Of a stretch of DNA of 64,000 bases, positions 4,472-23,007 are shown one piece after another; the stretch's first letter is position 1, and each line of letters begins with the position of its first letter. Made by a program: the position numbers and the translations under genes. The stretch covers positions 2,016,001 through 2,080,000 of the forward strand of contig OY969807.1 in assembly GCA_963703285.1 (NCBI GenBank). Reading direction: 5' to 3'. The DNA is from an uncultured Nitrososphaerota archaeon (GTDB lineage Archaea; Thermoproteota; Nitrososphaeria; Nitrososphaerales; Gagatemarchaeaceae). Below the pieces are notes generated by a model. That model was not told where the DNA came from and made no database searches. It saw nothing but the letters and a program-made list of their open reading frames with translations.

Positions 4472-4508
4472 TTACTCCTCGTCGAGGAACTCGGCGGGGT
4501 TCGGCGGC
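4472..4508 (-). repeat. Copy of aEF-2 3' end (encodes PPNPAEFLDEE*)
   Basis: ttactcctcgtcgaggaactcggcggggttcggcggc has 4 differences in 37 bp versus 20818-20854. Confidence 0.85.
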
Positions 4509-4570
4509 CCATCGGGGCGAACGCTCCTCAAAAGGTTGAATTAGGCAGCGGCCCTCGAGCCTTCCAGACC

Positions 4571-4948
4571 TTGCCAGAGGACGCGCCAAGCACGAACCCG
4601 GGAGCGGTGAGCGACCACCTGGCCAACGAGCGGACGTACCTCGCTTGGGTCCGGACGGGCATCGCGGTCATCGCCCTCGGATTCGTCGTGGCGAAGTTCG
4701 GGTTGCTGGTAAAGGAGCTCGCCCCGTCGGCTCCCTCGACCTCCTACGGGTTCTCGTCGGACATCGGGATAGCGCTGGTCATCGTCGGCGGGCTGATGCA
4801 GCTGCTCGCCCTGAGCCAGTTCGTCCTCAACCAGCGCAGGATTAGGGGTGGCAGGTACGAGCCGAGCAGAGGGATTGAGGTCCTCATCTCCGTCCTGGTC
4901 TTCGCGGTGGCGCTCCTGCTGGTGGTCTACCTCGCGGTCACGACGTGA
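4571..4948 (+). CDS. DUF202/YidH family membrane protein
   Basis: DHLANERTYLAWVRTG signature, three TM segments. Confidence 0.9.
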   Translation: MPEDAPSTNPGAVSDHLANERTYLAWVRTGIAVIALGFVVAKFGLLVKELAPSAPSTSYGFSSDIGIALVIVGGLMQLLALSQFVLNQRRIRGGRYEPSRGIEVLISVLVFAVALLLVVYLAVTT

Positions 4949-5041
4949 GGGTGCGGTCGGGCCGCCTGACGCCCCTCGCCGGCAGTGGACGAAGTCGGCG
5001 CCCGGGCTACACCGCCCTTGCGTCCCTCCATCTTGAGCTGC

Positions 5042-5063
5042 CTGCTCCTTGTCGACGAACCCT
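5042..5063 (-). repeat. Degenerate copy of aEF-2 3' end
   Basis: ctgctccttgtcgacgaaccct versus ctactccttgtcgatgaactct (3 mismatches in 22); stop codon lost. Confidence 0.5.
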
Positions 5064-5335
5064 CGAGTTCAGGGTCAGGGCCGACGCCGGAAAATCGGGG
5101 TACGCATCGGCGGCGCCGCTCCGTCTGCGTACTACCCCTTCGGGGGCAGGAAGGATTCGTTCTACGCGGTCCTGCACGCCCAGATCGACACGGTCGACTT
5201 CTTCACCGACAAGAAGATAGCGATATCGAAGTGAGAGTTCCGGACGGCTGTCAGGCACTAAGGGTCTCTTCTTCGGGGGGCTCTCAGAGCTAAAAGGCGC
5301 GGACGGCTGACGCCTCGGGTGGAAGGTGACACGAA

Positions 5336-6586
5336 CTGCCCCTAGGTCGGGGCGTAGTTCTCATACTTGGGTCGCGGGTCGTGAGAACCTTCCCGCTCGG
5401 AATCTTGGGCGTCCTACTCCCAGTCTACCTCTCGGCGATCGGGTCGTCGGTCTTCGTGGGCCTCTTCTTCTCCCTTTCCGCTCTATCTAGCTTCCTGGTC
5501 CTACTGCTGCTCGGACTGCGGGGCCAAAGAATCCGGGTACGCAACGCCCTGGTCGCCCAAATCTTGCTCTTCTCGGCATGTCTCACGGTGATGACATTCT
5601 CCCCGATAGCCGCGCTCTTCCTAGTTGCGGCCGCTATCTCGATCACGAACTGGGCCCCCGGTGGGGGCAGCGGCACCGCAGGCGGCGCCTACAACACCTC
5701 CGTCAACATACTACTCAGCGAAAACTCCGAGCCGAGTGGCAGGACCTTGGCGCTCAGCCTCTCGTCGGTAATCGGGGCGCTTTCGTTCGCGGCGGGGGCA
5801 TATTTCCTAAGCACCCTTAACATCCCCCGCTCCGAACTCGTGATCTCCCCTCTCACGAACGGTTCTCTCAATCTTGCGAAGCCCTCGACAGTATTTGCTA
5901 TCTCGGCGATCACCCAGCTCCTGGCTGCCGTCCTCTTGCTTAGGGTCAAGAACAAGAGCTCGGTGATCTCGGACAACGCGGCACCGCGGGGCGGACCCAG
6001 CGGCGGCCCCCAGGACCGGAGTACCGCGGTCGCGGTCTTCAGGCAGGCCTTCTCGTTGATTGCCGCCGAGTTCTCAAACGGTCTGGGGAACGGCATCTTC
6101 ACCCAACTCGTGCCCCTTTGGCTCTACGTGCGCTTCGGCATAAGCCTCGGGGAGGTGGCCGAGATCTTCTCCGTCGTCGGGGTGCTCACTGCGTTCATCG
6201 TGCTAGCATCTCCCCGGTTGGAATCGAGGATTGGGTCGATAAACGCCATATTCGCCGCCCGGTCCCTGTCGGGCGCCCTCCTGGTCGTGACTGCTCTCGC
6301 GCCGAGCTTGGTCGTCGCGTTGATTCCCTACTTCGCGTCGCTGGTCTTCTCCCGGGTCTCGCTCCCGATTCAACAGTCGTTCGTCTTCGCAAAGGTGAGT
6401 CGGGGCGAGTGGACGAGGGGAGCCAGCATGATCGCCACGGCAAACGTGGCGGGGACGGTGATAGGGCCGACGCTGGGCGCCTTTCTTCTTCTCAACGTCA
6501 ATCCTGGCCTGCCCTTCTTCATCGCGGCGCCCTTCATCCTCCTCAGCGCTTGGATATACCGAAGGTTCCTCCACCAGAGCCACTGA
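5336..6586 (+). CDS. MFS transporter (probable CTG start at 5336; ORF track start 5381)
   Basis: About 12 hydrophobic segments; frame open back to CTG 5336, which is preceded by GGAAGGTGA. Confidence 0.8.
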   Translation: MPLGRGVVLILGSRVVRTFPLGILGVLLPVYLSAIGSSVFVGLFFSLSALSSFLVLLLLGLRGQRIRVRNALVAQILLFSACLTVMTFSPIAALFLVAAAISITNWAPGGGSGTAGGAYNTSVNILLSENSEPSGRTLALSLSSVIGALSFAAGAYFLSTLNIPRSELVISPLTNGSLNLAKPSTVFAISAITQLLAAVLLLRVKNKSSVISDNAAPRGGPSGGPQDRSTAVAVFRQAFSLIAAEFSNGLGNGIFTQLVPLWLYVRFGISLGEVAEIFSVVGVLTAFIVLASPRLESRIGSINAIFAARSLSGALLVVTALAPSLVVALIPYFASLVFSRVSLPIQQSFVFAKVSRGEWTRGASMIATANVAGTVIGPTLGAFLLLNVNPGLPFFIAAPFILLSAWIYRRFLHQSH

Positions 6587-6663
6587 GACGCGCCGCGCCG
6601 TCGCGGCCGCTGCGTGGTCGTGGGCACAATCCCTATTATCAGAGGCCCTTCGAAGTCTGGGCC

Positions 6664-8061
6664 ATGCCCAAGCGCTCGAACTACCCGCCAGCAAGGTACC
6701 CCAACTTCAGGCCGGTATCGAGAGCGGTGCTCAGGCGCAGGATAGGGTCGATAGTTGCGCGGCCACCCTCCGAGGACCTCGAGAACCAGCCACACATGCC
6801 CCGCTACGGCATAAAGAAGGGTGACCGTGTTCTGGTGATAGCTCTGACTGAGTTCGACCCCCTCGTCGTCGAGGAGTACGTGGAAGCGATGAGGGCGTCC
6901 GGCGGGAAGGTCGACCTCCTTACGATCGACTCGAAGCCGACGGTGCCGCCTGAAGACGCAGCGGTGCAGGAGGCAGAGAGCATAGAGCCCAGCGGAGACA
7001 AAGACGTCGTCTACACAAGAATGACCAACCTATTGAACCCCAACTCTCTGTCAGGCCTGGTCCGGGCCGAAGGCTACGACCTGGTCGTGAGCGGCACCGC
7101 TGGGCCCCTCCCCAGAGTTCCATACAGATGGGTGAGGATGGAGTACATCAGCCGGGAGGAGTTCTCGAGCCCCCAGATAGACTTCCCCTTCGAGCTTCAG
7201 TCACTGATAGACCGGAAGGTGTTCGAGGCAATTCGCAGTTGCGAGAGGGTAAGGATCACCGACCCCGAGGGAACGGACGTATCTTTCACGAACTACGATG
7301 ACAAGCGACCCTTGGCCATGGCACACGAGTACGGCAAGCCCATCAACTTCGGATATGGCGGCATCGAGGACTGCACCGGAGTGATTGCAGGCACGCTGAA
7401 CCACCTGGGCGCTTTCCCCAACTGCAGGGCTCACGTCAAAGACGGCCTGATAGTGAAGGTGGAGGGAGGGGGAAAGTACGGAGACGTGTGGAGGGAGAAG
7501 CTGGAGAAGTACCGGGACGTCGTATTCCCGGAATATCCGATGCGAACCGCGATGAAGCTCCCCGAAGATGGCGCCCCGAAGATCCGAACCCAGAGACCAG
7601 GCTTCTTCTGGTACTGGGAATGCGCCATCGGAACGATCCCCGGAGTATTCAGGCTCAGAGACGAGGGCGCGATGACCCACTTTGCGAACTTCCTGCACGA
7701 CAGGAAGCGCGCGGGCTACCTTCACCACGGCTTCGGGGGTTCCAACAACTCCGCCCCGTTGCTGATCAAGGCCGGTCTTCCGTGGACTCACGTCCACCTA
7801 CACAACATGTTTGCCACCTACGAAGGGCGAACCAAGAACGGCGAAAGCGTGAAGGTGATCGATAGGGGTCACCTGACCGCCCTGGAAAACGCGGACGTTC
7901 GTGCCCTTGCCGCCAGGCTAGGAGTCTCCAACATGCTGAGCGAGGTCTGGATACCCGCCGTCCCGGGAATCAACGTTGCCGGAGATTACGACGACTACTC
8001 GGCAAACCCATCCGAGTGGATAAGGTCAGAGGCGAAGAAGCACCCTACTCTCTCCGCGTAA
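6664..8061 (+). CDS. Metalloenzyme of aminopeptidase T (M29)/NicX-like fold, function uncertain
   Basis: ATG at 6664; VRITDPEGTD, VKVEGGG, WECAIG, LHHGFG, HVHLH motifs resemble that fold. Confidence 0.55.
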   Translation: MPKRSNYPPARYPNFRPVSRAVLRRRIGSIVARPPSEDLENQPHMPRYGIKKGDRVLVIALTEFDPLVVEEYVEAMRASGGKVDLLTIDSKPTVPPEDAAVQEAESIEPSGDKDVVYTRMTNLLNPNSLSGLVRAEGYDLVVSGTAGPLPRVPYRWVRMEYISREEFSSPQIDFPFELQSLIDRKVFEAIRSCERVRITDPEGTDVSFTNYDDKRPLAMAHEYGKPINFGYGGIEDCTGVIAGTLNHLGAFPNCRAHVKDGLIVKVEGGGKYGDVWREKLEKYRDVVFPEYPMRTAMKLPEDGAPKIRTQRPGFFWYWECAIGTIPGVFRLRDEGAMTHFANFLHDRKRAGYLHHGFGGSNNSAPLLIKAGLPWTHVHLHNMFATYEGRTKNGESVKVIDRGHLTALENADVRALAARLGVSNMLSEVWIPAVPGINVAGDYDDYSANPSEWIRSEAKKHPTLSA

Positions 8062-8161
8062 TCACAGCGTTCTCGGCCCAGGCGGCATCCCCGGAGAAAC
8101 GAGGAGGGGATTCAGGAGCGTCCTGGAACGTTTATTTAGCAAATTCGGCCGCGATTTCCCC

Positions 8162-8566
8162 GTGGATAAGAAGAGAATAACTGTCGACTCTGTTCCGGAG
8201 GCGGGGAAGAGAGACGCCTCGGGGACCCTTACCCCTGCGCCCGTCTCTAACGCGATAAGGTACGGAGATCTGGTGTTCACAACCGCGAAGCCTGGGCGCG
8301 ACCCCTCGGGAAGGCTGGCCGAGGGCATCGAGGGCCAGACAAGACAGGCCCTGGAGAACATCAAGGCGCTCCTGACGGCTGCGGGCACCGACATGGAACA
8401 CGTGCTCAAGACGTGGGTCTACGTGACGGACATAGGGTATTTTGAAGGAATGAACAGGGTGTATTCCACCTACTTCAAGGTCCCGCCGGCGCGCACCTTC
8501 CTGGTGACCACAGGGTGGTTCGATCCGGAGCAGCTCATAGAGATTGAGGTCATAGCGGGCATCTAG
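8162..8566 (+). CDS. RidA/YjgF family protein
   Basis: QTRQALENIKALL, MNRVYSTYF, PPART, LIEIEVIA. Confidence 0.9.
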   Translation: MDKKRITVDSVPEAGKRDASGTLTPAPVSNAIRYGDLVFTTAKPGRDPSGRLAEGIEGQTRQALENIKALLTAAGTDMEHVLKTWVYVTDIGYFEGMNRVYSTYFKVPPARTFLVTTGWFDPEQLIEIEVIAGI

Positions 8567-8569
8567 TCC

Positions 8570-9562
8570 TTGAAAACCTCGTTCGGCGTCAGAGTCCCAG
8601 TTTCCGGCCCATTCGCTGACTTGCAGAACATCAGGCGGGCCGCCCTGGAGTCCGAAGCTCTCGGGTTCGACGCTCTCTGGGTCCACGACCAGATTGTCTG
8701 GAGCAAGGAACAGAACTCCCACCACGTGTCGTCGGGGTCGGTGGAGGCCGTCACAGACAGAGACCCCAACTTCTTCGAGTCGATAACGACGCTCAGCTAT
8801 CTCGCCGGATTGACAAACAAGATCAGGCTGGGAGTGGCCGTCATCGTCCTTCCATACCGCAACCCTCTGGTCCTGGCGAAACAACTCATGAACCTCGACG
8901 TAATTTCGAACGGCCGGCTGATACTCGGCGTCGGAGCGGGAGCCCCTTTGGTGGCCAAGACCTTCGAGGCCGTGGGCGTGTCCTTCGAAAAGAGAGGAGA
9001 AATCACCGACGATTACCTGAAGGCGCTGCTTTCGGTGTTCGAGCGCCAGCCCCATTCGAGCTACTCCGGAAAGCACGCCAGCTTCGCAGGAATCGAGGTC
9101 TTCCCGAAACCGGTTCAGGCACCCCACCCTCCCATCATCGTCGGCGGACTTGGGAGAGCCCTTAGAAGAGCAGCGATGCTGGGAGACGGATGGATTCCCG
9201 CCAACATAACTCCCGATAACGTGAAGAAGGGAATAGCACGGATAGATTCGATCGCGAGGAAGAACGGAAGGCGGCTACCCGAGTTCATCGTCGGGAACGA
9301 GACGTTCGTCAGCCTGGACCGGGACTCGAACGCGGCGCGCAGAAACGCGGCGGCAACAGTCGCCAGTTACGCGAAGTCGATAGGCCGGGGGGGCGAAGAC
9401 GTCACCCTGATCGGATCGCCTTCGGAGGTTGTCGAGAGGGTGGAAGCCTACCGCCAGTCGGGGGTGAACATGTTCGAACTGAAGTTCATCTACAGGGACA
9501 TGGAGAGCCTGAGCTCGCAGTTGAAGCTGTTCGCGTCAGACGTGGCGCCCTCCTTCCTTTAG
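8570..9562 (+). CDS. LLM class flavin/F420-dependent oxidoreductase
   Basis: GFDALWVHD, LPYRNPLVLAKQ..LDVISNGRLILGVG, PKPVQAPHPPI. Confidence 0.9.
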   Translation: MKTSFGVRVPVSGPFADLQNIRRAALESEALGFDALWVHDQIVWSKEQNSHHVSSGSVEAVTDRDPNFFESITTLSYLAGLTNKIRLGVAVIVLPYRNPLVLAKQLMNLDVISNGRLILGVGAGAPLVAKTFEAVGVSFEKRGEITDDYLKALLSVFERQPHSSYSGKHASFAGIEVFPKPVQAPHPPIIVGGLGRALRRAAMLGDGWIPANITPDNVKKGIARIDSIARKNGRRLPEFIVGNETFVSLDRDSNAARRNAAATVASYAKSIGRGGEDVTLIGSPSEVVERVEAYRQSGVNMFELKFIYRDMESLSSQLKLFASDVAPSFL

Positions 9563-9701
9563 CGCTTCGTGACGCGGGGCGTCACGGCCAGTCGGGAGTC
9601 CTCGACGCGCTCCAGACAAGCTCGAATGATTTCCGGTCGGCGGATCCGCAACTCGTTGCAAACCGTTTAATATTCAGCCTCCCCCCCGAAGGAGACGTAC
9701 C

Positions 9702-11088
9702 TTGGTTTCACACGACCTCGCGATTGAAGGTGCACAGGTGTTCATCGACGGCGACCTGACGGAAGCCAACCTAGGAATCAGCGACGGAGTCATCTCGGCC
9801 GTGACGAAGGACACGCTCCAGGCTTCGGAGAGGCTCAGGTTCCCCGGCAAGATTGTCATCCCGGGCATCGTCGACCTGCACTCACACATAAGAGACCCTG
9901 GCTACACCTACAAGGAGGACTTTCAGACCGGGTCCATGGCCGCCGCCGCAGGAGGGGTCACGATGTTCGTGGACATGCCAAACGTCGAACCTCCAACGGA
10001 CAGCCTGAAGACCTTCGAGGAGAAGAAGAAGATCGCGTCGAAGAAGTCGATGGTCGACTTCAACCACTTCGTCTTCCCGAAGATCCCCGAGGTCGGCAGG
10101 GTCGCCCGGGCCGGAGCCGCGGGTTTCAAGATATTCATGGTCCGTGGCGCCTATCCCCACGACCCACGGATCTGCATTGAGGACCATGCCACCCTCTACA
10201 AGACGTTCGCTGCGATCAAGAAGACAGGGCTTCCCTGTCTGGTCCACCCCTCGAACATGTCCCTCTTCGAGGCCTTCTACGGGGAGCATCGAAAGAAGAA
10301 TCCAAAGGAGAAGCCGTACATCAGCTTCGGGAAGGCGTACATCGAAGAGGAGATTCTACGGAACCTCCGCTTCGGTGCTCGCAATTCTGGCGAAGCGGAC
10401 CGGAGTAAGGCTCCACCTCGTCCACACCCATTCTGAGCAGGCCATCGAGGTCCTCAGGCAGGCGAAGGCAGCGGGGTACGACATCACGGCCCAGACGGAC
10501 CCGAAGTACTTTGTCACGACCGCGGAGGAACTCCGACGCCTCGGGCCCCTGGTCCTTCCAGGAGGGCTTCTCTCGAAGCGCAGGGTCGCGGCGGTCTGGA
10601 ACGCGCTCAGAACAGGGACCATAGACGTGCTTGGCACCGATCACGCTCCTCACACCAAGAAAGAAGTCGAGGAGACCATGGCAAAAGATCCCTGGGCCGC
10701 TCCCTTCGGCTGCCCTCAGCTCGAGCACTACCTCTCGGTCTTTCTCAATGAAGTGAACAAGGGAACCATCTCTCTGTCTCAGCTTATGAGAGTGGCCTCG
10801 ACGAACCCTGCCAGGATAATCAACGTGTTCCCGAAGAAGGGGACGATTAGGGTGGGCTCGGATGCGGACCTGGTCGTGGTGGACATGAAGAAGGAGAAGA
10901 AACTGACCGGCGAGAAGGTCTACACCAAGGTCGGCTGGACCCCCTATGAAGGGAGGACTGTGAAGGGAGTGCCCATAATGACCATCAGGCGCGGCGAGGT
11001 GATCATGAGGGACGGGGTAGTCGTCGGCAAGCCTGGCTCTGGCAAGTTCGTCGCCCCACTGAGGACTCCGATGGTCAAGCGCCGCTAA
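9702..11088 (+). CDS. Cyclic amidohydrolase (dihydroorotase/allantoinase family), one frameshift near 10354
   Basis: PGIVDLHSH, AAAGGVT, DMPN in 9702-10436; GTDHAPH, STNPA, KGTIRVGSDAD in 10144-11088; frames join at IEEE/(I)YGTS. Confidence 0.85.
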
Positions 11089-12277
11089 GATCAGCGCCGG
11101 CCAATCGTCTCGTCAGCAGGCAAACCTGGCTGATCGCGCTCTTCCTGACATGCTCGACGGTGTCTTCCACGGTGGTTGCCGTTGGCGTTGGGTAGGACCT
11201 CAACCACGATGCCCGGTATCCCCTTTCGAGGAATGCGTCGCAGTCGGAGCCCCGCGGGGTCGAGAGGCGCGGGAGCCTCAGGCCGAGACTCTCGGCGAGT
11301 GAAGAGATCCTCGAGTTGAGGCCTTCGGAAAGGCGGCCCGCTCTCGAGTTATCCACCAGGTGGAGCCGCCCCGACCCCACGGAATCAAGGTTAACGACAC
11401 TCGGTCGAGTTTCAAGGACTTTCTCAGCGACAAAATGACGAGCGCCAACCAGGCCATATTCCTCTGCGTCGGTCGATAGAAGTGCGAACGAAGGGTTCTT
11501 GATGACTTCTGCAAGGAAGAGAAGAAGCGAGGTGCCCGACGCGTCGTCGAGGGCACCCGGGGAGAAATGCCTCGAGTCGCGGTGCGCCACGTAGACGGCC
11601 GTCGTCTTCGCGTTCCTTGGCGTCGCGAAGATGTTTGTGCCTCGACCACGTACCAGCTCAGCGCGCAGGGTCATGAGGGCTTGCAACGCTTTGCCGGTCG
11701 AGTCCTCCCAGAGCCTCTCGCCAAGCTCGCCGGGAATCATGAGGCAAGGGATTGAAGACGAAGGATACCTCACTCGCCCTGACAGCAGGCGTCCCCTGCT
11801 CTGAAAAATCAGAGCCGCGATGGCGCCCCTCTCGGCCAGGTCTTCCGCAGCCGTCGACTCGTGCGTGGCGGACACCCTCACCAGAGCTATCTTTCCCTGA
11901 ACGTCCTCACTATCCGACCTGCACACCCCTCCAGCCAATCCTGACCTCGGCGTCGAGATGGAGCAGATTGCAGGAAGGCACCTGATGTCCTCACCATCCA
12001 AAGTGAGCCTCCATCGCTCAGGACTGTACCTCTGAAACTCGAAGTGGTCCTCTGTGATTGAGAACCCTCCGGAGCCCTCGATTGACGAGCGCACCAACTC
12101 GCGCGCCCGTTCGCCTTCCCTCGATCCGGCTGCCCTGGGCCCGCGCGACAGCCTCGCGATCCACTCGATTACGAAGCTGGCGTCCGCCCTCTTGCTCCCT
12201 GAGACGACTCGATGGGCTCGCATCCGCTGCTGTGGGAGGGTCAGGTAATGGCTATATACTTCCTCACGCCGGTACAA
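11075..12277 (-). CDS. M28 family peptidase with PA domain (start uncertain)
   Basis: VAHRDS, PGALDDASG, AEEYGLVGA, NLDSVG, SDC motifs. Confidence 0.8.
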   Translation of the reverse strand: MYRREEVYSHYLTLPQQRMRAHRVVSGSKRADASFVIEWIARLSRGPRAAGSREGERARELVRSSIEGSGGFSITEDHFEFQRYSPERWRLTLDGEDIRCLPAICSISTPRSGLAGGVCRSDSEDVQGKIALVRVSATHESTAAEDLAERGAIAALIFQSRGRLLSGRVRYPSSSIPCLMIPGELGERLWEDSTGKALQALMTLRAELVRGRGTNIFATPRNAKTTAVYVAHRDSRHFSPGALDDASGTSLLLFLAEVIKNPSFALLSTDAEEYGLVGARHFVAEKVLETRPSVVNLDSVGSGRLHLVDNSRAGRLSEGLNSRISSLAESLGLRLPRLSTPRGSDCDAFLERGYRASWLRSYPTPTATTVEDTVEHVRKSAISQVCLLTRRLAGADLSGA

Positions 12278-12282
12278 GCCGG

Positions 12283-14135: not shown

Positions 14136-14185
14136 GCCGCCGAACGGCTCTTGTACACCTCCTTCGAAGGAAGTAGCGGTAGCCG

Positions 14186-15779: not shown

Positions 15780-15782
15780 CCG

Positions 15783-16556
15783 TTGGCCCTTGGTCTTCTG
15801 ACGAGCAACTGGGCCATCAGAATCTACGCCCTCGCAATCTTCCTGACGGGGTGGCAATTGATAGGGCAGTCGGTGAACCCGATAATATTCGCCCCTCCAG
15901 CCAAGGTCGCATCGGCCTTCTCCAGCCTGTGGTCCGCCGGAACGCTCCAGGCTGACACCCTCGTAACCCTCGAAACGATGTTTGCTGGATTCTTGGTATC
16001 CTGTGCTGTCGGGATCCCGCTCGGGCTCCTGATGGGACGAATTCGGCTCGCCGAGTACACCTTCGATCCGTATGTGAATTTCATCTATGCAACGCCGGTG
16101 GTTGCGATAATCCCCATCGCGCTCATCTGGTTCGGCCCGAGCATCTCGGCCACGTACTTCATCATCTCACTTCACACCATACCTCCAATTCTGATCAACA
16201 CCATGGCCGGTGTGAAGGACACAGAGAGGAGCATTCTGGAGACCGGCAGAGCCTTTGGGTTCAAAGGAAGGAAGCTGTGGCAGAAGGTTGTCATACCGGC
16301 GTCGGCTCCCTTCATCATGGCCGGACTGAGAATCGGTATCGGCGCGGCGTTGATAGGGACGATGGTCGCCGAGATCTTTCTCTACAACGCCGGCTTGGGC
16401 TATCTGCTTGTGAATGAGACGGCCTTCTTCAACAGCGCTGCGGTCGTGTGCGGGGTCCTGATTATCATGGTTATCGGCGTGGTCCTGGCGGAGTCGACAA
16501 AGTGGCTAGACCGGAGGTTCGTTGGCTGGGCTCGCGGGGCTTCCGGAGTGAGATAG
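15783..16556 (+). CDS. ABC permease (SsuC/TauC-like)
   Basis: ILETGRAFG, IPASAPFIMAGLR. Confidence 0.9.
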   Translation: MALGLLTSNWAIRIYALAIFLTGWQLIGQSVNPIIFAPPAKVASAFSSLWSAGTLQADTLVTLETMFAGFLVSCAVGIPLGLLMGRIRLAEYTFDPYVNFIYATPVVAIIPIALIWFGPSISATYFIISLHTIPPILINTMAGVKDTERSILETGRAFGFKGRKLWQKVVIPASAPFIMAGLRIGIGAALIGTMVAEIFLYNAGLGYLLVNETAFFNSAAVVCGVLIIMVIGVVLAESTKWLDRRFVGWARGASGVR

Positions 16557-16653
16557 ACCAGCCCGGTTGAGAGCGAAGCACCGAGGACTGGGAGTGCAGG
16601 AGTCTGGCAGGGGACGCGGGCCCGGATGGATTCGAACCTGCGAGTCCCTGGAC

Positions 16654-16691
16654 CTACTCCTTGTCGATGAACTCTGTGGGGTTCGGCGGCT
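16654..16691 (-). repeat. Copy of aEF-2 3' end (PPNPTEFIDKE*)
   Basis: 38 bp with 1 mismatch to 20818-20855. Confidence 0.95.
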
Positions 16692-16697
16692 TTGACA

Positions 16698-16946
16698 TCA
16701 TCCGTAAGCAGAGCCTCTGCTGGCAATCTTGAAAACGAGAACCGTCTGAGCGTCGGCGATTGTATAGAGTATCCGGTAATCGCCAACTCTGAGCCTGTAT
16801 GAGTTTGGTATTCCCCGAAGCTTCTTGCAGCCTTGCGGATAGGGAGATTCCACGAGTTCGGATATCCTTGATTCGAGCCTTTCTCTCAGAACCGGCGGTG
16901 ATTCATCTAGGGCCTTCTTGGCTCTGCTCGATAGATAGACCTTCAA
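16698..16946 (-). CDS. relE: RelE/ParE family toxin
   Basis: GCKKLRG, YRLRVGDYRILY, IASRGSAY. Confidence 0.9.
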   Translation of the reverse strand: MKVYLSSRAKKALDESPPVLRERLESRISELVESPYPQGCKKLRGIPNSYRLRVGDYRILYTIADAQTVLVFKIASRGSAYG

Positions 16947-17113
16947 CGCTTACGGGACCTGACGAATGGCACCGATCTTCCTTCCTTGTGCTCCTGAACC
17001 GCCTCAGCGAAAGCTCTCCTGTCATCCTCGGAGGTCTCCTCAGACAGCGCCTCCTCGATCGAATCGAGTCGCCTTCTGATGAGGTTCAATTCCTTCTCGA
17101 GGCCCGTCTCCAT
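16943..17113 (-). CDS. Putative RelB-type antitoxin (56 aa, not in ORF track)
   Basis: METGLEKELNLIRRRLDSIEEALS...KEGRSVPF; its stop overlaps the relE start (TTGA). Confidence 0.7.
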   Translation of the reverse strand: METGLEKELNLIRRRLDSIEEALSEETSEDDRRAFAEAVQEHKEGRSVPFVRSRKR

Positions 17114-17189
17114 CTTATCCTCTCTTGAGTCCTTGGACGTAATTAAACCCTGCTCGCTGGGATTGAAGTCCCGAAGTCCGGGTTCGGGC

Positions 17190-17240
17190 CTACTCCTTGC
17201 CGATGAACTCTGTGGGGTCCGGTGGCTCCGGGCTAAGGTC
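17190..17240 (-). repeat. Copy of aEF-2 3' end (DLSPEPPDPTEFIGKE*)
   Basis: ctactccttgccgatgaactctgtggggtccggtggctccgg aligns to the gene end without gaps. Confidence 0.85.
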
Positions 17241-17316
17241 TGGCCATGTCCTAATCTGCGAATCAGTCAACCGAAACGCTTCTGTCAATTGGAACCGAAT
17301 CATGAGCTTGATGGGT

Positions 17317-17853
17317 CTACGGCGCTGGATTTGACGGAGGCAGCAATTCCTTCTTCACAAAGTCGCTGAACGAACGGTCAAACCAGTCTTCCATTCTGTC
17401 GTCTGTCCAGACTTTTGCAATCAACCCGCGACTGAAGGCGTTCTTCATCCACAGCAGCTCTCCCTCCCATTCGTTGTCGCTGAGGATTTTCCTCTGCTTC
17501 ATGTGATAGGTGTGCGCGCACATTAGCAGGATTTGGTAGGCAAAATGTCTCTCCTTGCGAGATTCGACCGGCAACTGGTTGTTGATTACCTTCAAGAGAC
17601 TCGGGTCTTCCTGTAGCGTCGCGGACAGGCTTTGGTGCATCTTGTCGATGTCGGCCAGGACCCTGGTCTCCAAGTCGACCTTCTGACTCCGCACCTGCCG
17701 GGTGGAAAAATAGAGCGTCACACCAAGAGCCCCTATCAGCACTATTGACTGTACCAGGCTCAGCACGTCGCTGAATCCAAGGGCAGCCACAGCCACCGTA
17801 TCACCATGAATTGATAGATTAACTTTTGGACAAGTAAGGAGTGCCCAGACCAA
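17317..17853 (-). CDS. Hypothetical protein with N-terminal TM helix (start uncertain)
   Basis: One TM segment followed by a helical domain; lower GC than flanks. Confidence 0.65.
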   Translation of the reverse strand: MVWALLTCPKVNLSIHGDTVAVAALGFSDVLSLVQSIVLIGALGVTLYFSTRQVRSQKVDLETRVLADIDKMHQSLSATLQEDPSLLKVINNQLPVESRKERHFAYQILLMCAHTYHMKQRKILSDNEWEGELLWMKNAFSRGLIAKVWTDDRMEDWFDRSFSDFVKKELLPPSNPAP

Positions 17854-18006
17854 CCTTCAATACCGCAAGCACGATGTCTTTCTAGTAGGTTCCCGAAACA
17901 GAAGACTGTCTGCAGGAGAATGTGGTGGTCGCTATCCGGGTGGGAAATCCGGCCTGGCATCTCGCAAGAGTTCAGGCCCTACAGGATCGAACCCGAGTCT
18001 GAGCCG

Positions 18007-18043
18007 TCACTCCTTGCCGATGATTTCGGCGGGCGGCGGTTCC
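18007..18043 (-). repeat. Degenerate copy of aEF-2 3' end (EPPPAEIIGKE*)
   Basis: tcactccttgccgatgatttcggcgggcggcggttcc; one codon deleted in frame. Confidence 0.7.
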
Positions 18044-18108
18044 CGAGCGGGCAAGGCATCTGCTTCCTGGGGCAAATCGGTTGCCACGTCAAGTTCTCGC
18101 AGGCTGCC

Positions 18109-18288
18109 TTAGCGTCCTCGACTGTTAGTTATCGCCTGATTTATGTCATTCAGGGCCAGAATCTCTTCACCGAATGTCTCCTGACTTCTCTCCCATGCGA
18201 CCAAGGCGCGTCGCACGACTACTCTACGAAGTCTTAGGAGAATCTTTAGGAGCTCTTCTTGTGCTTCTTCGTCGCTCTTCTCGGCCAA
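18109..18288 (-). CDS. Small hypothetical protein (59 aa)
   Basis: TTG start preceded by AGGTGA; MAEKSDEEAQEELLKILLRL... Confidence 0.45.
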   Translation of the reverse strand: MAEKSDEEAQEELLKILLRLRRVVVRRALVAWERSQETFGEEILALNDINQAITNSRGR

Positions 18289-18392
18289 TTGTCGATCACC
18301 TTATCAGCCCTTGAAGCGATGTAGGCTTCCCACTTCTCGGGATCGCGGCTAAGTTTCCCTATCTTCCTTAGCACGTCGTCCGATTCTCCCAT
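18246..18392 (-). CDS. Small hypothetical protein (48 aa)
   Basis: ATG about 30 bp after CTTATAT; MGESDDVLRKIGKLSRDPEKWEAY... Confidence 0.4.
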   Translation of the reverse strand: MGESDDVLRKIGKLSRDPEKWEAYIASRADKVIDNWPRRATKKHKKSS

Positions 18393-18466
18393 TCGAGTCA
18401 CAACTGAGTATAAGGGCGCTGGATATAAGCGGTGCGTAGTCTCGAGTCAGATGGTACGCGGCTAGA

Positions 18467-18520
18467 TTATTCTTTGTCAATGAACTCCACTGGGTTCGGC
18501 GGCTCGGGCCAGAGGCCCTT
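18467..18520 (-). repeat. Copy of aEF-2 3' end from a lower-GC allele (KGLWPEPPNPVEFIDKE*)
   Basis: Mostly synonymous differences (CCA, ATT, AAA, GAA, TAA); weaker similarity continues to about 18550. Confidence 0.85.
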
Positions 18521-18944
18521 CGTCTTTTCCCAGGACCTTGATCACAGGCAGTGAGCCGCTGATTCCCACAGAAGACGTTTCGAGTTACCTAATCGGTCAC
18601 AGCTTCGAGAGCTTCTTCGTCAGCGTCCGGTGAGTCTCCAGAGTCTCCTCTATGGCTCTCTTCTACGCGTCGGCCTCTGATTCTGGATGTCATTCCTGCT
18701 TCGCCTTCATACGATTGATTTTTCATGTCCATTCCAGCCTCCTAAGCCTACCCTTCAACCAAGCAACCGCCTGAGGGAGAGTCATCCTGTCGGCTGCAAC
18801 GTCAAAGCATGAACCTGATTGCCGCATCGTCCTGAACCGCGAACACAAGGCAGGTTGTAAAGGCCTCTCGGGACCACCTGACTTCGGCCTCGCGCACGTG
18901 TCTGCTGTGTTTAAGAATGCGTGAACGGCATCTGAGGGAATCGA

Positions 18945-19505
18945 ATGTTCGGCCTGACAAGCTTCGAGTCAGTTGATTCTGTCCTGGCTTTGTTGAGCAT
19001 CGCCATAGGGGTCTCGATATTCTTGATGCAGCAGAGGGCCGACGAAAAAATAAACGGCATAATCAAGAGGCAGTTCAGACGGCAGGAGCTCGAAAAGAAG
19101 TACTTCGGGACGAGGCTGATTTCGAATCTGGAGCTCGTGAGGAAGAATTATCTTAAACTGCGGCAGTTTCTGGGTGATTATCTCAACGACCATTCGCAGG
19201 CCAGCAGGCAGAAGGTGAAGAGCTTCTGTACGTTCCACAGCAAGCATCTGGACGAGTACGTCGTTCCAACGCTGCGAAGCGACCTGGGGCGACTGATCGA
19301 GTTCATAGACGACCTGGAACTGGTCGACCAGCTCTCGTCAGCGTTCGATGACTTGTCATCTCCTTTCAAAGATTGTTCCGTTGACAGCGCGCTCGACGAA
19401 CCTGACTCATCGCTGAGAGGGAAGATGTCCTCTTTGCAGGAACGGTCCGAGCGAATCGAATCCCTTCTGTCGAAGCTTGGGAGAGAGGTTCCGACGTTGG
19501 AGTAG
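18945..19505 (+). CDS. Hypothetical protein with N-terminal TM helix
   Basis: 186 aa ORF, ATG start, TTTAAG box about 35 bp upstream. Confidence 0.7.
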   Translation: MFGLTSFESVDSVLALLSIAIGVSIFLMQQRADEKINGIIKRQFRRQELEKKYFGTRLISNLELVRKNYLKLRQFLGDYLNDHSQASRQKVKSFCTFHSKHLDEYVVPTLRSDLGRLIEFIDDLELVDQLSSAFDDLSSPFKDCSVDSALDEPDSSLRGKMSSLQERSERIESLLSKLGREVPTLE

Positions 19506-19678
19506 TCGCCCCGGCAAAGCCCCGGAACGCGATGGTGACGATAGCGGAATCGGGGCTTGCCATCCCGGGTCGTCCAGCCCCCGAGGCCCAGCCAAGTCGC
19601 CCGTTCGAAGATTCGACTATGACTTCCAAAACCCGGGAAGCAATCATTATATGCCGCAAGCCCTCAGGAACCTCTACA

Positions 19679-19858
19679 ATGCTTCGATACGCGTGCAGGA
19701 CTTCAGGGCTCGACTGCGACGCGGTCTTCACGACAAAGACCGAGGAAGAGCTGATCAATCAAATCAACCAGCATGCCATTCAGGTGCACGGATTAGAGCC
19801 GAGCGACTTGAGCCCGGAGCTCATGCGCCAAGTCAAGGCCAAGATCGAACGGTCCTAG
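19679..19858 (+). CDS. DUF1059 small metal-binding protein
   Basis: ACRTSGLDCDAVF..KTEEEL...HAIQVHG; ATG at 19679. Confidence 0.8.
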   Translation: MLRYACRTSGLDCDAVFTTKTEEELINQINQHAIQVHGLEPSDLSPELMRQVKAKIERS

Positions 19859-19980
19859 GGGCCATCGTGGCGAATCCTTGGCGAGAAAGCCGCCGACCGC
19901 CCTCGCGGAACCGAAGGTGCCGCGGAAGCCTCTGAGTTTGCCTCGAAGACCCATCTTGCCTGCTTTCTTCCCCGCTTCCC

Positions 19981-20087
19981 CTACTCCTTGTCTATGAACT
20001 CGGCGGGGTTCGGCGGCTCCGGCGCCAGCCCCTTCCTCTTCCTAATCTCCATGACCAGCGGCAGGAGCATGTTCGTCGGGACCGACT
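19981..20087 (-). repeat. 107 bp copy of aEF-2 3' end
   Basis: 4 mismatches to 20818-20924 (3 synonymous, 1 T>M). Confidence 0.97.
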
Positions 20088-20504
20088 TCCTACATCAATC
20101 CAACCTAGATGTTCGCGTCTTCCGATCTCCTTGAGCCGGTCGAAATGCCGATCGGACGATACGATTGCCTCAGCCCGGGACCGCATCGCCGAGGCTGCGT
20201 GGATCGCATCTCTGGGGTCGAGCCTGTACCTCCTGATCAGGTCGAGTGCCGACGGCAGCAGGTCGCCATCGACGGACAGGATTCCCAGACCCGGCATCGT
20301 CAGGTAAGCCTCTCCGGCTGTGGCCGCGTCCTCAGGGCTCCTGTGCCTCTTGACCACCCAAACGATTTCGTCGAAGGCGAGCGCCGACGATGCTGCCTGC
20401 TGACGGCCCGACTGCACCTCTCCGAGGAGCGCTCTCGCCCGCTTGCCTATCCTATCCGTGCTCAGAGCCGCGTAGATGAACACGTTCGAATCGAGGTAGA
20501 GCAG
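19992..20504 (-). CDS. vapC: VapC PIN-domain toxin (probable CTG start 20504; C-terminus runs into the aEF-2 copy)
   Basis: LYLDSNVFIYA, FDEI, RDAIHAASA, SSDRHFD. Confidence 0.9.
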   Translation of the reverse strand: MLYLDSNVFIYAALSTDRIGKRARALLGEVQSGRQQAASSALAFDEIVWVVKRHRSPEDAATAGEAYLTMPGLGILSVDGDLLPSALDLIRRYRLDPRDAIHAASAMRSRAEAIVSSDRHFDRLKEIGRREHLGWIDVGSRSRRTCSCRWSWRLGRGRGWRRSRRTPPSS

Positions 20505-20508
20505 GTCT

Positions 20509-20763
20509 TCATTCCCTGCCTTTCAGCTCGTCTTCGTAGGCGTGGGCCGGGACGCGCGATATCGAGCGCCCCTTCGACGCTATTCTTTCGAAGAGCGCCA
20601 CCGAGTCGGTCTCGGCTCTCTCGAGGAGGAGCCTGTCGCCTTCCAGCTTAAAGACGACCTTCGAGCCGGGGTGGACGTTCAGCGCCCTGCGCATGACTTT
20701 CGGAATCACGACCTGGCCCTTGGGACCGACTTTCATCTCCTCCTCTGCCGTGGGTGCGGTCAT
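20509..20763 (-). CDS. vapB: AbrB/MazE family antitoxin
   Basis: KVGPKGQVVIPKVMRRALNVHPGSKVVF; directly upstream of vapC. Confidence 0.9.
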   Translation of the reverse strand: MTAPTAEEEMKVGPKGQVVIPKVMRRALNVHPGSKVVFKLEGDRLLLERAETDSVALFERIASKGRSISRVPAHAYEDELKGRE

Positions 20764-20817
20764 GTAGGTACCGGAAAAGTATAACCTCGATTTATACCTT
20801 CTCGCCCCGCGCCGACC

Positions 20818-23007
20818 CTACTCCTTGTCGATGAACTCTGCGGGGTTCGGCGGCTCCGGCGCCAGCCCCTTCCTCTTCCTTATCTCCGTGACCAGCGGCA
20901 GGAGCATGTTCGTCGGGACCGACTGCCAGAGCTTGAAGTTCGTGTTCCAAGTGGCCTTGCCCGCGGTCGCGCCCCTCATGACCTGCGAGAGGTCGAAGGT
21001 CTCGGCCGCCGGTATCTCGCCCTGGATGATTGTCACGACCTCCCTCTGCTCGACGTTGATGAGCTTCCCCCGCTTCGAGCTGATGACGCCCGTGATGGCG
21101 CCTATCAGGTCCCCGGGCCCCTTCACCTCTATCCCGAGTATCGGCTCCAGCAGCGTCGGGTTCGCCGTCAGCATCGCGCCCAGCACCGCCCTCCTCGTCG
21201 CGGGCATGAGCTGCGCGTAGGTCCTGTGCGCCGGGTCCTCGTGCGGGACGTAGTGGGTCAGCGTCACCTTCACACCCCTGCAGATCTCGTAGGCGAGCGG
21301 CCCGTTCTCCATGATGTCCTCGAACCCGGCCCGTATGGAGTCCATCGACTCCTGCAGGTACTGGACTCCCTTGGTCTCCTCGGTGAGCATGTTGCCCCTG
21401 GGGTCTATGGTCACGACCGACTTGGCGTCGTCCGACGACCAGCCGTTGTCCCTCAGCGTCTTCTGGATGCCCTTTTTGTCCGCCATCTCGTTGAGCGTCC
21501 CGTTCCTGATGAGCTCGACGATGTGCGGGTCGAGCGGCTCTACCTTGATGAATATCTTGTTGTGCCTGTTGGGGGAGCGCGACATCACCGGGCCCGCCGT
21601 GCCCCTGACCGCCTCCCTGTAGTTGATGATGGGCGGCGAGGTGATTATCTCGAGCCCCTGCTGCTGGAGCATCGTCGTCGCTATCTCCAGGTGGAGGACG
21701 CCCATCCCGGACATCAGCGTCTCGCCCGACTCCTGGTTGATGGTGATGATGAGGTTCGGGTCCTCGATGTTCAGCCTGCGCATCGCCTCGACGAGCTTCG
21801 GGAGGTCCCTCGGGTGCTTCGCCTCGACCGCAGTCGTCACAACAGGCTCGGAGACGTAGTGTATCGACTCGAACGGGACGACGTCCTTGAGGTTCGAGAT
21901 TGTCTCCCCCGAGCGGATGTCGAGCCCCAGCAGCGCCGGGATGTTGCCCGCCGGGAGCGAGTCCACTATCTCCCTCTGGAAGCCCATGAAGAGCTGGACC
22001 GACTGTATCTTCCCCTCCCTCTTGGAGTTGAGCAGGTAGACGGGGTCGCCGTTCGAGACGGAGCCGGAGAAGAGCCTCCCGACGCCCACCAGGCCAGCGG
22101 CCGGGTCGACGACGACGTTGGTGACCATCATGACCATCGGGCCGTTCTCGTCGCACGCCAGGAGCGACTTGCCGACGTCGCTGTTGAGGTCGCCCTGCCA
22201 AATCTTGGGGATGCGGTAGGCCTGCGCGACGTGCGGCGGCGGGTGGTGCTTCACTACCATGCCCAGGAGAGCCTCGTGGAGCGGGAGCTTCTTGCCCAGC
22301 CCCTCGGGGCCCACTGTCTGGTAGGCCTCGATGATGTCCTTGAACGACATGTTCGCCTGCTTCGCCATGACCGCGTTGAAGCCCCACTTGTCCTTGGACG
22401 AGCCGAAGGCGACCTGCCCGGCCGCGACCGTCACCTTCCACTTCTCCTTGTACTCGGGCTCCGCGTAGGTGTCGATTAGGCGGTTGAAGTCGTTTACGAT
22501 GTTGAAAAGCCACTTCTGCATCGCTTCGGGGCCTAAACGAAGCTCTTTTATCAAACGGTCGATTTTATTGATGTATAAGACCGGACGGACCCGTTCTTCG
22601 AGTGCTTGCCGCGTTACAGTCTCAGTCTGGGTCATAACTCCTTCAACCGAGTCTACAACGACGATTGCGCCGTCAACGGCCCTCAAACTGCGCGTTACTT
22701 TGCCAGTGAAGTCGATGTGGCCCGGCGTATCGATTAGATTGATTACATAGGGCTGCCCTTCCTCTTCGTAGTACAAAGTGACGTTTGCTGCCTTAATCGT
22801 CATCTGTCTGGACTGTTCCAGCTCCATATAGTCCAAAGCGAGCGCCTGTCCGGCAACGGAGGGTGAAAGCATCCCGCATGCGGCTAAAAGGGAGTCGGAC
22901 GTAGTGGTCTTCCCGTGGTCGACGTGTGCGATGATCCCCAGGTTCCGTATGTGCGTCCTATCGTGGACGATTTTTAGAGCTTCGGTTGTCGACTTGAACT
23001 TCGGCAT
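20818..23007 (-). CDS. fusA: Archaeal translation elongation factor 2 (aEF-2)
   Basis: AHVDHGKTT, NLIDTPGH, INKIDR, SPNRHN, HEDPAHR; 729 aa. Confidence 0.99.
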   Translation of the reverse strand: MPKFKSTTEALKIVHDRTHIRNLGIIAHVDHGKTTTSDSLLAACGMLSPSVAGQALALDYMELEQSRQMTIKAANVTLYYEEEGQPYVINLIDTPGHIDFTGKVTRSLRAVDGAIVVVDSVEGVMTQTETVTRQALEERVRPVLYINKIDRLIKELRLGPEAMQKWLFNIVNDFNRLIDTYAEPEYKEKWKVTVAAGQVAFGSSKDKWGFNAVMAKQANMSFKDIIEAYQTVGPEGLGKKLPLHEALLGMVVKHHPPPHVAQAYRIPKIWQGDLNSDVGKSLLACDENGPMVMMVTNVVVDPAAGLVGVGRLFSGSVSNGDPVYLLNSKREGKIQSVQLFMGFQREIVDSLPAGNIPALLGLDIRSGETISNLKDVVPFESIHYVSEPVVTTAVEAKHPRDLPKLVEAMRRLNIEDPNLIITINQESGETLMSGMGVLHLEIATTMLQQQGLEIITSPPIINYREAVRGTAGPVMSRSPNRHNKIFIKVEPLDPHIVELIRNGTLNEMADKKGIQKTLRDNGWSSDDAKSVVTIDPRGNMLTEETKGVQYLQESMDSIRAGFEDIMENGPLAYEICRGVKVTLTHYVPHEDPAHRTYAQLMPATRRAVLGAMLTANPTLLEPILGIEVKGPGDLIGAITGVISSKRGKLINVEQREVVTIIQGEIPAAETFDLSQVMRGATAGKATWNTNFKLWQSVPTNMLLPLVTEIRKRKGLAPEPPNPAEFIDKE

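Follow-up and report, generated by a model that had tools for sequence, protein, structure and literature searches.

The gene for archaeal elongation factor 2 (aEF-2) in an uncultured archaeon of the Nitrososphaerota is followed by a row of displaced copies of its own 3′ end, and the stretches between these copies carry differing cargo genes. We found this array in 64,000 nucleotides of contig OY969807.1 (positions 2,016,001 to 2,080,000; called the window in the following, with positions counted from its first letter), which is the only contig of a genome of 2,252,123 bp with about 60% G+C. Arrays of the same kind with other cargo recur in relatives and in soil metagenomes, cassettes are shared and permuted between them, some gene ends are mosaics, and no recombinase gene lies within the arrays. 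We consider it an even bet that positions 4472–20817 form an additive island of at least six recombinase-less cassettes on the 3′ end of aEF-2, moved mainly by homologous recombination and probably seeded site-specifically.

The end of aEF-2 recurs downstream of the gene

Downstream of aEF-2, and all in its orientation, are six displaced copies of its last 36 to 107 nt and a weak seventh. The following elements were delineated, from the gene outward.

20818–23007, minus strand: aEF-2, the anchor of the array; open reading frame (ORF) of 729 amino acids with the Pfam domains GTP_EFTU, EFG_III, EFG_IV and EFG_C
20818–20924, minus strand: R0, the gene's own end (last 107 nt), the unit that recurs downstream
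19981–20087, minus strand: R1, displaced aEF-2 end; 107 nt, 96.3% identity, stop codon TAG
18467–18526, minus strand: R2, displaced aEF-2 end; ~57–79 nt, stop codon TAA; 19 amino acids, 84% identity
18007–18042, minus strand: R3, displaced aEF-2 end; ~36 nt, stop codon TGA; E 3.2e-4 genome-wide; followed by a tRNA T-arm-like piece
17190–17231, minus strand: R4, displaced aEF-2 end; 42 nt, 90.5% identity, stop codon TAG
16654–16691, minus strand: R5, displaced aEF-2 end; 38 nt, 97.4% identity, stop codon TAG
5042–5063, minus strand: degenerate site resembling the aEF-2 end, with CAG at the stop position
4472–4508, minus strand: R6, the most distal displaced aEF-2 end and far border of the island; 36 nt, 91.7% identity, stop codon TAA

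Several searches agreed on these copies. A 30-nt probe from the 3′ end, allowing up to three mismatches, matched four sites in the window (16654, 17190, 19981 and 20818), where 0.00 were expected from shuffled sequences (n = 100). A repeat search returned a seven-member family at 4474, 16656, 17192, 18009, 18469, 19983 and 20820, and a 23-nt family that adds 5041–5063. When the last 160 nt of aEF-2 were compared by blastn-short with the whole 2,252,123-bp genome, matches were obtained at 19981–20087, 17190–17231 and 16654–16691 with the lengths and identities listed above, as well as at 4473–4508 (36 nt, 91.7%) and 18474–18505 (32 nt, 87.5%), all on the strand of the gene; elsewhere in the genome, just 18 nt on the other strand (C1:1395814–1395831) reached E < 0.1. 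A 39-nt nhmmer profile, built from 23 copies, which match it by construction, detected the gene end and all six displaced copies genome-wide at E ≤ 3.2e-4. It also matched C1:1395806–1395831 on the opposite strand (E 9e-5), which encodes ..PTEFIDKE.. within an unrelated ORF.

The six displaced copies are in frame with their stop codons (TAG, TAA, TGA, TAG, TAG and TAA from R1 to R6) and encode peptides similar to ..PPNPAEFIDKE; the differences between R2 and the gene fall mostly on third codon positions. Because the copies sit only downstream of aEF-2, on its strand and in frame, and encode its C-terminus, we regard the array as confirmed. The series is confined to the aEF-2 locus, and no other such locus exists in the genome. 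An earlier reading made from the sequence alone (the sequence-only reading) had placed recurring aEF-2 ends at 19981, 18467, 18007, 17190, 16654 and 4472, and all six positions were borne out by the shuffles, blastn-short and nhmmer. The genome-wide comparison that it had proposed gave convincing copies only downstream and on the gene strand, with no random scatter. Its weak copy at 5042 belongs to the 23-nt repeat family, but lacks a stop codon and is not significant on its own (nhmmer E 0.043 among the loci described below and 0.25 genome-wide).

Related arrays occur throughout the genus and in soil metagenomes

We ran the profile on 59 loci, comprising the window, 20 loci of relatives and 38 loci from soil metagenomes, and obtained 139 copies on the strand of the gene and 0 on the opposite strand. 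Extra copies were present in 13 of the 17 loci of the same genus and in neither of 2 loci that represent two further genera of its family; among the soil metagenome loci, 24 of 38 had at least two copies. A scan of stop codons on both strands of the 20 relatives' loci likewise placed C-terminus-like remnants solely downstream of aEF-2 and on its strand. The exact degenerate motif of the gene end occurs four times in the window genome and 0–1 times in most of 401 genomes of the class, and a reversed control pattern in none of the 401. This tally takes in five unpublished genomes, on which no claim rests.

Neighbouring copies are separated by a median of 714 bp (n = 80; 10th to 90th percentile 451–2455 bp). 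Fifty-one of the 80 intervals are shorter than 1 kb, and the longest is one of 12,182 bp in the window. All remnants retain the final ~18–21 nt and the stop codon. Their homology to the gene extends over 15 to ~240 nt (median 60) without a preferred length among 87 distinct remnants, some of which nhmmer may have overextended; such continuous lengths are expected for carried homology rather than for a fixed duplication. One relative, G009, has seven copies (six of them displaced ends), two of which also share ~23 nt beyond the stop codon. The proposal that copies are co-oriented and end at the stop codon therefore stands for the six copies of the window, but not for the border of these two.

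Content and order of the cassettes differ between arrays, and an identical fixed order was not observed. The idea that repeated insertion at the 3′ end of aEF-2 built an array of repeats and cargo thus gained support from the co-oriented copies, from their confinement and from the arrays of relatives. In the metagenome contigs L150, L153, L155, L160, L164, L173, L175, L176 and L145, the commonest cassette adjacent to aEF-2 carries, on the opposite strand, a gene for a clan AA aspartic protease of 135 amino acids (retropepsin-like, with a DTGS motif). One of the 38 metagenome contigs (L167, 1296 nt) has a terminal overlap of 62 nt, which falls within an aEF-2 repeat that is at least 160 nt long and borders a single cassette. 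A circle and a repeat-bounded assembly loop are indistinguishable in this case, because the overlap lies inside the long repeat.

Four public soil runs, all of one study and possibly from the source sample, have contigs that cover the window stretch. Contigs from these runs span the gene end R0 (20759–21361) and R2 (18261–18760) with unique sequence on both sides, and one nearly spans R4 (16714–17256). The earlier suggestion to look for excised circles or repeat-to-repeat joints in reads was followed in the short contigs of the four runs, where none was seen, which is not evidence against excision; joints occurred only at 15116–15356, inside an ABC gene. In three runs, contigs match the window to the right of 18202 and 19800 and diverge to the left, which points to different surroundings for parts of cassettes 2 and 3 in other strains. 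Misassembly of repeats or chance similarity could be suspected, as repeats can mislead assemblers and the public runs with this sequence may derive from the source sample. This is countered by the four matches versus 0.00 by shuffling, the strand bias of 139:0, the single-contig genome and the spanning contigs and, as a stronger control than these contigs, by the arrays in independent assemblies of relatives, alongside those in metagenome contigs. We regard an artefact as refuted by this recurrence in independent assemblies.

Cassettes carry distinct cargo and are shared between arrays

Cargo families were assigned with Pfam over 67 ORFs around the array and 34 ORFs in the remaining window. 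The cassettes, each followed by a displaced aEF-2 end, contain the following genes.

20088–20817: cassette 1, 730 bp; MazE/AbrB at 20509–20763 (minus) and PIN/VapC at 19992–20483 (minus), both by Pfam
18527–19980: cassette 2, ~1.45 kb; DUF1059 by Pfam at 19532–19858 (plus), a predicted membrane/coiled protein of 186 amino acids from its translation at 18945–19505 (plus), and small ORFs
18043–18466: cassette 3, 424 bp; small ORFs at 18246–18401 (minus) and 18109–18288 (minus), no Pfam match
17232–18006: cassette 4, 775 bp; membrane protein of 178 amino acids at 17317–17853 (minus), with only a weak match to DUF6082
16692–17189: cassette 5, 498 bp; antitoxin-like gene at 16943–17113 (minus) and ParE/RelE toxin at 16698–16946 (minus), by Pfam
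4509–16653: cassette 6, 12.1 kb; transporter and catabolic block, by Pfam
Cassette 6, first part: DUF202 at 4571–4948 (plus), MFS at 5381–6586, a protein without assignment of 647 amino acids at 6118–8061, RidA at 8162–8566
Cassette 6, middle part: luciferase-like monooxygenase at 8570–9562, amidohydrolase in two frames at 9702–11088, M28 peptidase at 11075–12277 (minus)
Cassette 6, last part: NMT1-like binding protein at 12058–13533, ABC permease, ATPase and permease at 14186–16556

The sequence-only reading had described distinct, self-contained cargo between the copies, and Pfam confirmed its AbrB-PIN, DUF1059, RelE, catabolic/ABC and DUF202 units. Cargo genes lie on both strands, in the window as well as in the arrays of relatives, and some remnants double as the C-terminus of a cargo ORF. 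The PIN toxin of cassette 1 reaches into R1 only as assembled; base 20112 is missing in contigs of two public runs, and without it the toxin has 126 amino acids and ends before R1. Base 10354 is likewise missing there and sits where the amidohydrolase splits into two frames (9702–10436 and 10144–11088). Both bases are either assembly slips or real frameshifts.

An all-against-all comparison of the intervals identified shared cassettes. The RelE cassette (536–541 bp, with the same borders) is the fifth cassette of the window, the fourth of L002 and the first of L144 and L169, with differing neighbours; the window copy is 85% identical to that of L002 over 454 nt and 76% to those of L144/L169 over 429 nt. 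Cassette 3 has relatives in L144/L169 (79%, 267 nt) and in L002 (83%, 307 nt), and part of cassette 2 is related to the metagenome contig L174 (78%, 553 nt). Three further units, with HisPhos (K), NHL (L) and SnoaL (M), follow each other as K-L-M in L007 and as M-L-K in L014, in both cases on one strand and with a shared flank behind them. As both orders lie on the same strand, inversion cannot account for the permutation.

The identity of aEF-2 between the window and L002 is 87%, near the 85% of the RelE cassette, so that the sharing may in part reflect old vertical inheritance. Gain, loss or movement of single cassettes is nevertheless required by the differing neighbours and the permutation. 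Within cassette 6, positions 6623–16560 are collinear with G014:C1:46323–56226 at 78% identity, on a contig without aEF-2 or remnants; with this query, the 10-kb core was found in 1 of 22 other genomes of the genus.

No recombinase gene accompanies the arrays

The sequence-only reading saw no recombinase in the window, and Pfam on the 67 and 34 window ORFs found none either. Within the arrays, no recombinase family was detected in 81 ORFs of five relatives or in 98 ORFs of at least 90 amino acids from the 38 metagenome loci, nor did NCBIfam assign a recombinase to any of 21 ORFs without assignment. The 80 repeat-bounded intervals of the 59 loci hold not one intact or partial recombinase gene. 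Tyrosine recombinases (PF00589) gave 57 matches in 18 of 23 genomes of the genus, none of them less than 114 kb from aEF-2 on its contig. The genome-wide search for Cas1 and tyrosine recombinases that had been proposed returned no Cas1 (PF01867) for the window genome and a single tyrosine recombinase, 408 kb away, directly beside tRNA-Leu(cag) and a low-GC island. One serine recombinase lies beside TnpB in this genome, which has about nine TnpB genes, and a Y1 transposase was not found in it.

These results bear on the possibility that the array consists of decayed full-size elements (provirus, plasmid or casposon), of which deletions left toxin-antitoxin modules and a few cargo genes. Toxin-antitoxin modules resist loss, and tandem re-use of attachment (att) sites and displaced target fragments as element borders are well known (PMC6563490; PMC4383910). 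Moreover, the definition of cis-mobilizable elements (CIMEs) is that of decayed elements with retained att sites (PMC7563491). Decay, however, leaves unexplained why the same short unit appears with the same borders in different arrays, why 51 of 80 intervals are below 1 kb and why none holds a trace of a recombinase gene, when the smallest thaumarchaeal cryptic element reported has 2.6 kb and an integrase (PMC6563490). We consider decay improbable.

The aEF-2 gene is a published target of casposons. As the sequence-only reading had stated, family 1 casposons sit at its 3′ end in Nitrosopumilus, where tandem insertions were also reported (PMC4046053, PMC6563490, PMC8464041), and the casposase of Ca. 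Nitrosopumilus koreensis duplicates 13 nt that correspond to the I-D-K-E codons of the gene (PMC8464041). A Cas1-solo enzyme could accordingly have inserted DNA at the aEF-2 end and duplicated its target, yielding a CRISPR-like array of leader, repeats and inserts. The target codons (..F-I-D-K-E-stop) are the same as those of the koreensis enzyme, which takes many substrates without need of terminal repeats, 7 nt to ~4 kb in length (PMC8464041), and casposons at ef-2 are found in tandem (PMC6563490). But Cas1, absent from the window genome, occurs in only 4 of 23 genomes of the genus, in none of them close to aEF-2, and the array-rich genomes lack it. PolB was not found among the cargo of the window, of five relatives' arrays or of the 38 metagenome loci, none of 70 distinct cassettes has ends with inverted similarity to each other at z > 3, and the repeats measure 15 to ~200 nt instead of 13 nt. 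The casposase explanation is thus already largely refuted and, in our judgement, highly improbable. Casposon and transposon signatures were rejected as a class on the same grounds (no Cas1, no inverted ends, no fixed duplication length), and with them the casposon origin that had been considered.

The likeness to integrons did not extend to membership, and we rejected it as such. No intI was found near any array (23 genomes of the genus, five relatives' arrays, 38 metagenome loci), single-stranded DNA folds of seven repeats with their flanks gave no attC-like hairpin (z −1.24 to +1.15), and the orientation of the cargo is mixed. Of the suggested analogy to CRISPR, the architecture stands and nothing beyond it. 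Both analogies are structural only.

A tRNA-Leu array and tRNA-like pieces beside the aEF-2 ends

A second cassette array exists in the same genome at C1:597260–600700 (L190). Here, AbrB-like/PIN, Fic/DOC and MazE/PIN units stand behind a tRNA-Leu gene, and uniform remnants of ~45 nt of the tRNA 3′ end lie between them at ~598085–598130 and ~598905–598950. The only integrase of the genome (C1:1627363–1628601) lies beside another tRNA-Leu gene with an identical 3′ end. At the aEF-2 locus, one piece resembling a tRNA was delineated.

16614–16641, minus strand: tRNA 3′-end-like fragment (T arm and acceptor strand), directly after R5

This fragment matches, over 23 nt with 91% identity, the 3′ ends at C1:999287–999383 (tRNA-Arg cct) and C1:134587–134678. 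Sequences resembling tRNA 3′ halves were also noted at 17960–18003 and 17150–17186 of the window and in L002, L142, L156, L166, L168 and L175; these pieces directly follow displaced aEF-2 ends and some true gene ends. With ARAGORN, neither the window nor the 20 relatives' loci yielded a tRNA gene, and Rfam returned nothing above chance over positions 3500–24000.

These observations, among others, could point to a recombinase acting in trans. The cassettes would then be miniature non-autonomous elements that use their copy of the aEF-2 end as attP and an unlinked enzyme (chromosomal, viral or plasmid-borne), with insertion and excision at a core that lies within the final ~21 nt of aEF-2, comparable to integron cassettes and to CIMEs or microCIMEs. 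The last ~18–21 nt and the stop codon kept in all remnants are in line with such a core, as are the small units of narrow size range (median 714 bp) that are shared and permuted, the remnants too short for homologous recombination, the att-like tRNA pieces that accompany remnants, and the tRNA-Leu array with its ~45-nt remnants and an integrase beside tRNA-Leu with an identical 3′ end. In addition, site-specific insertion at the aEF-2 end is proven for Nitrosopumilus, in which the duplicated 13 nt (ATTGATAAAGAGT) represent the IDKE codons (PMC8464041).

Yet the complete window genome offers no candidate enzyme, as its tyrosine recombinase is tied to tRNA-Leu and its serine recombinase lies by TnpB. 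An action of the tRNA-Leu integrase through similarity of sites was rejected, since the aEF-2 end is unlike the tRNA-Leu att (z ≤ 1.1). G009, despite its seven copies, has no PF00589 match, at 77% completeness. The repeats have no attC-like fold, and viral contigs scanned with the degenerate gene-end pattern gave 0 hits, hence no free element that mimics the site. Together with the exchange points and mosaic gene ends described in the next section, this leaves a trans-acting recombinase as the strongest competing explanation, possible but in our judgement less likely than not.

Gene ends bear probable marks of homologous exchange

In L142 and L153, a MazEF cassette (cassette G) lies beside the gene. 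There, the last ~150 nt of aEF-2 diverge by ~15% from related strains, compared to ~3% upstream. The displaced copy behind cassette G is closer to the gene end of the related strains in a comparison that is not clean, and a three-way comparison of gene end, remnant and related strains gave no clean crossover. In L156, where cassette G also comes first, the gene end alternates between blocks of two alleles (F from −145 to −112, S from −103 to −40, and F from −34 to the stop codon). A common core of ~21 nt exists, yet the exchange points for cassette G differ between L156 and L142/L153. These differing exchange points and the block mosaics would be expected from homologous recombination rather than from a fixed crossover.

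The 5′ part of aEF-2 in the window also stands out. Over the first 450–600 nt, G+C at third codon positions (GC3) is 0.54–0.80, versus 0.90–0.98 over the remaining gene. In the 5′ part (22400–23007), identity to the relatives L170 and L144 was seen to fall as well. A low-GC stretch of 36 kb (23050–58950) lies directly upstream of aEF-2 and extends up to a ParB-N gene (58996–59910); G009 lacks this stretch here, and its ParB-N gene is directly upstream of aEF-2 (78% identity, 296 amino acids). The GC3 shift abuts an island that is missing at this place in G009, and the 5′ segment looks like a recombinant, which may have been imported with the island through a crossover inside aEF-2. A displaced 5′ end of aEF-2 was searched for at the far side of the island and not found. 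The sequence-only reading had offered homology-anchored recombination as an alternative, which gains support from the mosaic gene ends and from this foreign-looking segment.

Genes of the 36-kb stretch include ArdC-N-like (23076–23909), Fic, HicB-like and AAA_13-like genes, as well as two giant overlapping ORFs (42230–50650 and 49107–58484; 2806 and 3125 amino acids) without a Pfam match, which may be one gene with a frame change. Pfam found no integrase among the window ORFs of this stretch; a group II intron reverse transcriptase/maturase/HNH gene (25249–27048) encodes the sole mobile-element enzyme in the window.

How the array may have been built

We take the array to be an additive flexible island exchanged by homologous recombination, and it combines a conserved anchor gene, variable cassettes and a recombinant mosaic at the anchor. 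In the direction in which we infer each event to have run, an insertion would be a recombination within the last ~15–200 nt of aEF-2, in which the incoming DNA supplies a gene end of its own, in frame and with a stop codon, and shifts the resident end, and everything behind it, downstream. The essential aEF-2 would stay intact because the incoming DNA brings its own gene end, and each cassette would terminate in a former end of aEF-2. Spread, reshuffling and homogenisation of the ends would proceed mainly by homologous recombination of the host, with aEF-2 and its displaced ends as portable homology arms, either through a double crossover with DNA from another array or through excised circles that enter in Campbell fashion. 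Site-specific integrative elements with the conserved sequence as their target probably deposited the initial repeat-flanked units. Such a seeding is suggested by the ~21 nt kept in all remnants, by remnants too short for pairing or used as the C-terminus of a cargo ORF, by the tRNA pieces and by the tRNA-Leu array.

Several points weigh against this reading. The shortest remnants (15–25 nt) are very short for homologous recombination, which spreads repeat-flanked units but cannot explain their first origin. The mosaic gene ends were seen in metagenome contigs of relatives and not in the window, and the public soil runs contain no contig with an excision or alternative junction. The relatives' assemblies are drafts, in which an unlinked small contig could hold a recombinase. 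The tRNA-Leu cassette array with its cognate-looking integrase points to integrase-type events, and sense-strand matches to tRNA 3′ ends were found in 9 of 114 remnant flanks, compared to 0 on the control strand. The weighting of homologous recombination against a site-specific recombinase is therefore uncertain; we give the former an even chance and the latter a distinctly smaller one.

Relation to known systems and significance

Displaced 3′ fragments and tandem re-use of a site are textbook features of islands in tRNA genes. Tandem integrase-borne islands resemble the aEF-2 arrays in these features and in the intact target gene, and the tRNA-Leu array of the same genome is of this form. They carry an integrase by definition, however, whereas the aEF-2 units are integrase-free and sit at a protein gene. 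For thaumarchaeal elements and casposons, displaced 3′ fragments and re-use of sites have been reported (PMC6563490). Casposons share the target gene, its last codons and tandem insertion at the site, but Cas1, PolB, terminal inverted repeats and a 13-nt duplication are all missing from the arrays.

The CIMEs and microCIMEs related to streptococcal ICEs (integrative and conjugative elements) and IMEs (integrative and mobilizable elements) are also recombinase-less, carry att copies from the 3′ end of a target gene, stand in tandem and vary between strains (PMC7563491). There, an integrase is present in the array or the species, whereas the aEF-2 arrays have no integrase-bearing partner in 59 loci. 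The aEF-2 units are also smaller (median 0.7 kb), their repeats vary in length, they reside in an archaeon, and conjugation genes are missing at the site. Integrons and clusters of attC sites lacking an integrase (CALINs), including archaeal ones, share small cassettes of one or two genes, a wealth of toxin-antitoxin modules, variability and the existence of integrase-free arrays (PMC9668308). In contrast to them, the aEF-2 repeats are ends of a coding gene and not attC, intI and attI are lacking, and each insertion must restore an essential gene. Moreover, aEF-2 cargo lies in both orientations with promoter-like boxes of its own, while integron cassettes are mostly promoterless, co-oriented and expressed from one shared promoter.

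In the accessible literature, including parts of the genome paper of the family (PMC10640624), we found no description of such arrays in this lineage; the supplementary lists of integration sites of PMC6563490 might hold related cases. Four features set the arrays apart from the known systems, namely the end of a protein gene as the repeat, long arrays of only tiny units without an enzyme, the genus-wide occurrence, and the lack of a cognate enzyme in our searches. Tentatively, the 3′ end of aEF-2 could be the docking site of an undescribed integron-like system of cassette capture, in which a spare C-terminus on each small, recombinase-less unit, many of which are toxin-antitoxin pairs, serves as the recombination site. 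Within populations, units might then be stacked, excised and reshuffled by an unlinked recombinase or by host recombination, and the sister array at tRNA-Leu might follow the same logic; this, too, we hold to be possible rather than probable.

Until now, the only elements known to land at aEF-2 were casposons of marine ammonia oxidisers. The same codons here anchor arrays in an uncultured soil lineage, in most genomes of the genus and in many metagenome contigs. If the arrays are mere relics that are shuffled homologously, the finding would still show a highly conserved gene anchoring the recombination of flexible islands on either side of it. Should the cassettes move as units, archaea would have a second, independent route to integron-like stockpiling of genes, built on an essential protein gene instead of attC hairpins. 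The arrays would then provide a readable record of insertions, a tracer of gene flow in soil, and a safe-harbour site for genetic tools in Thaumarchaeota.

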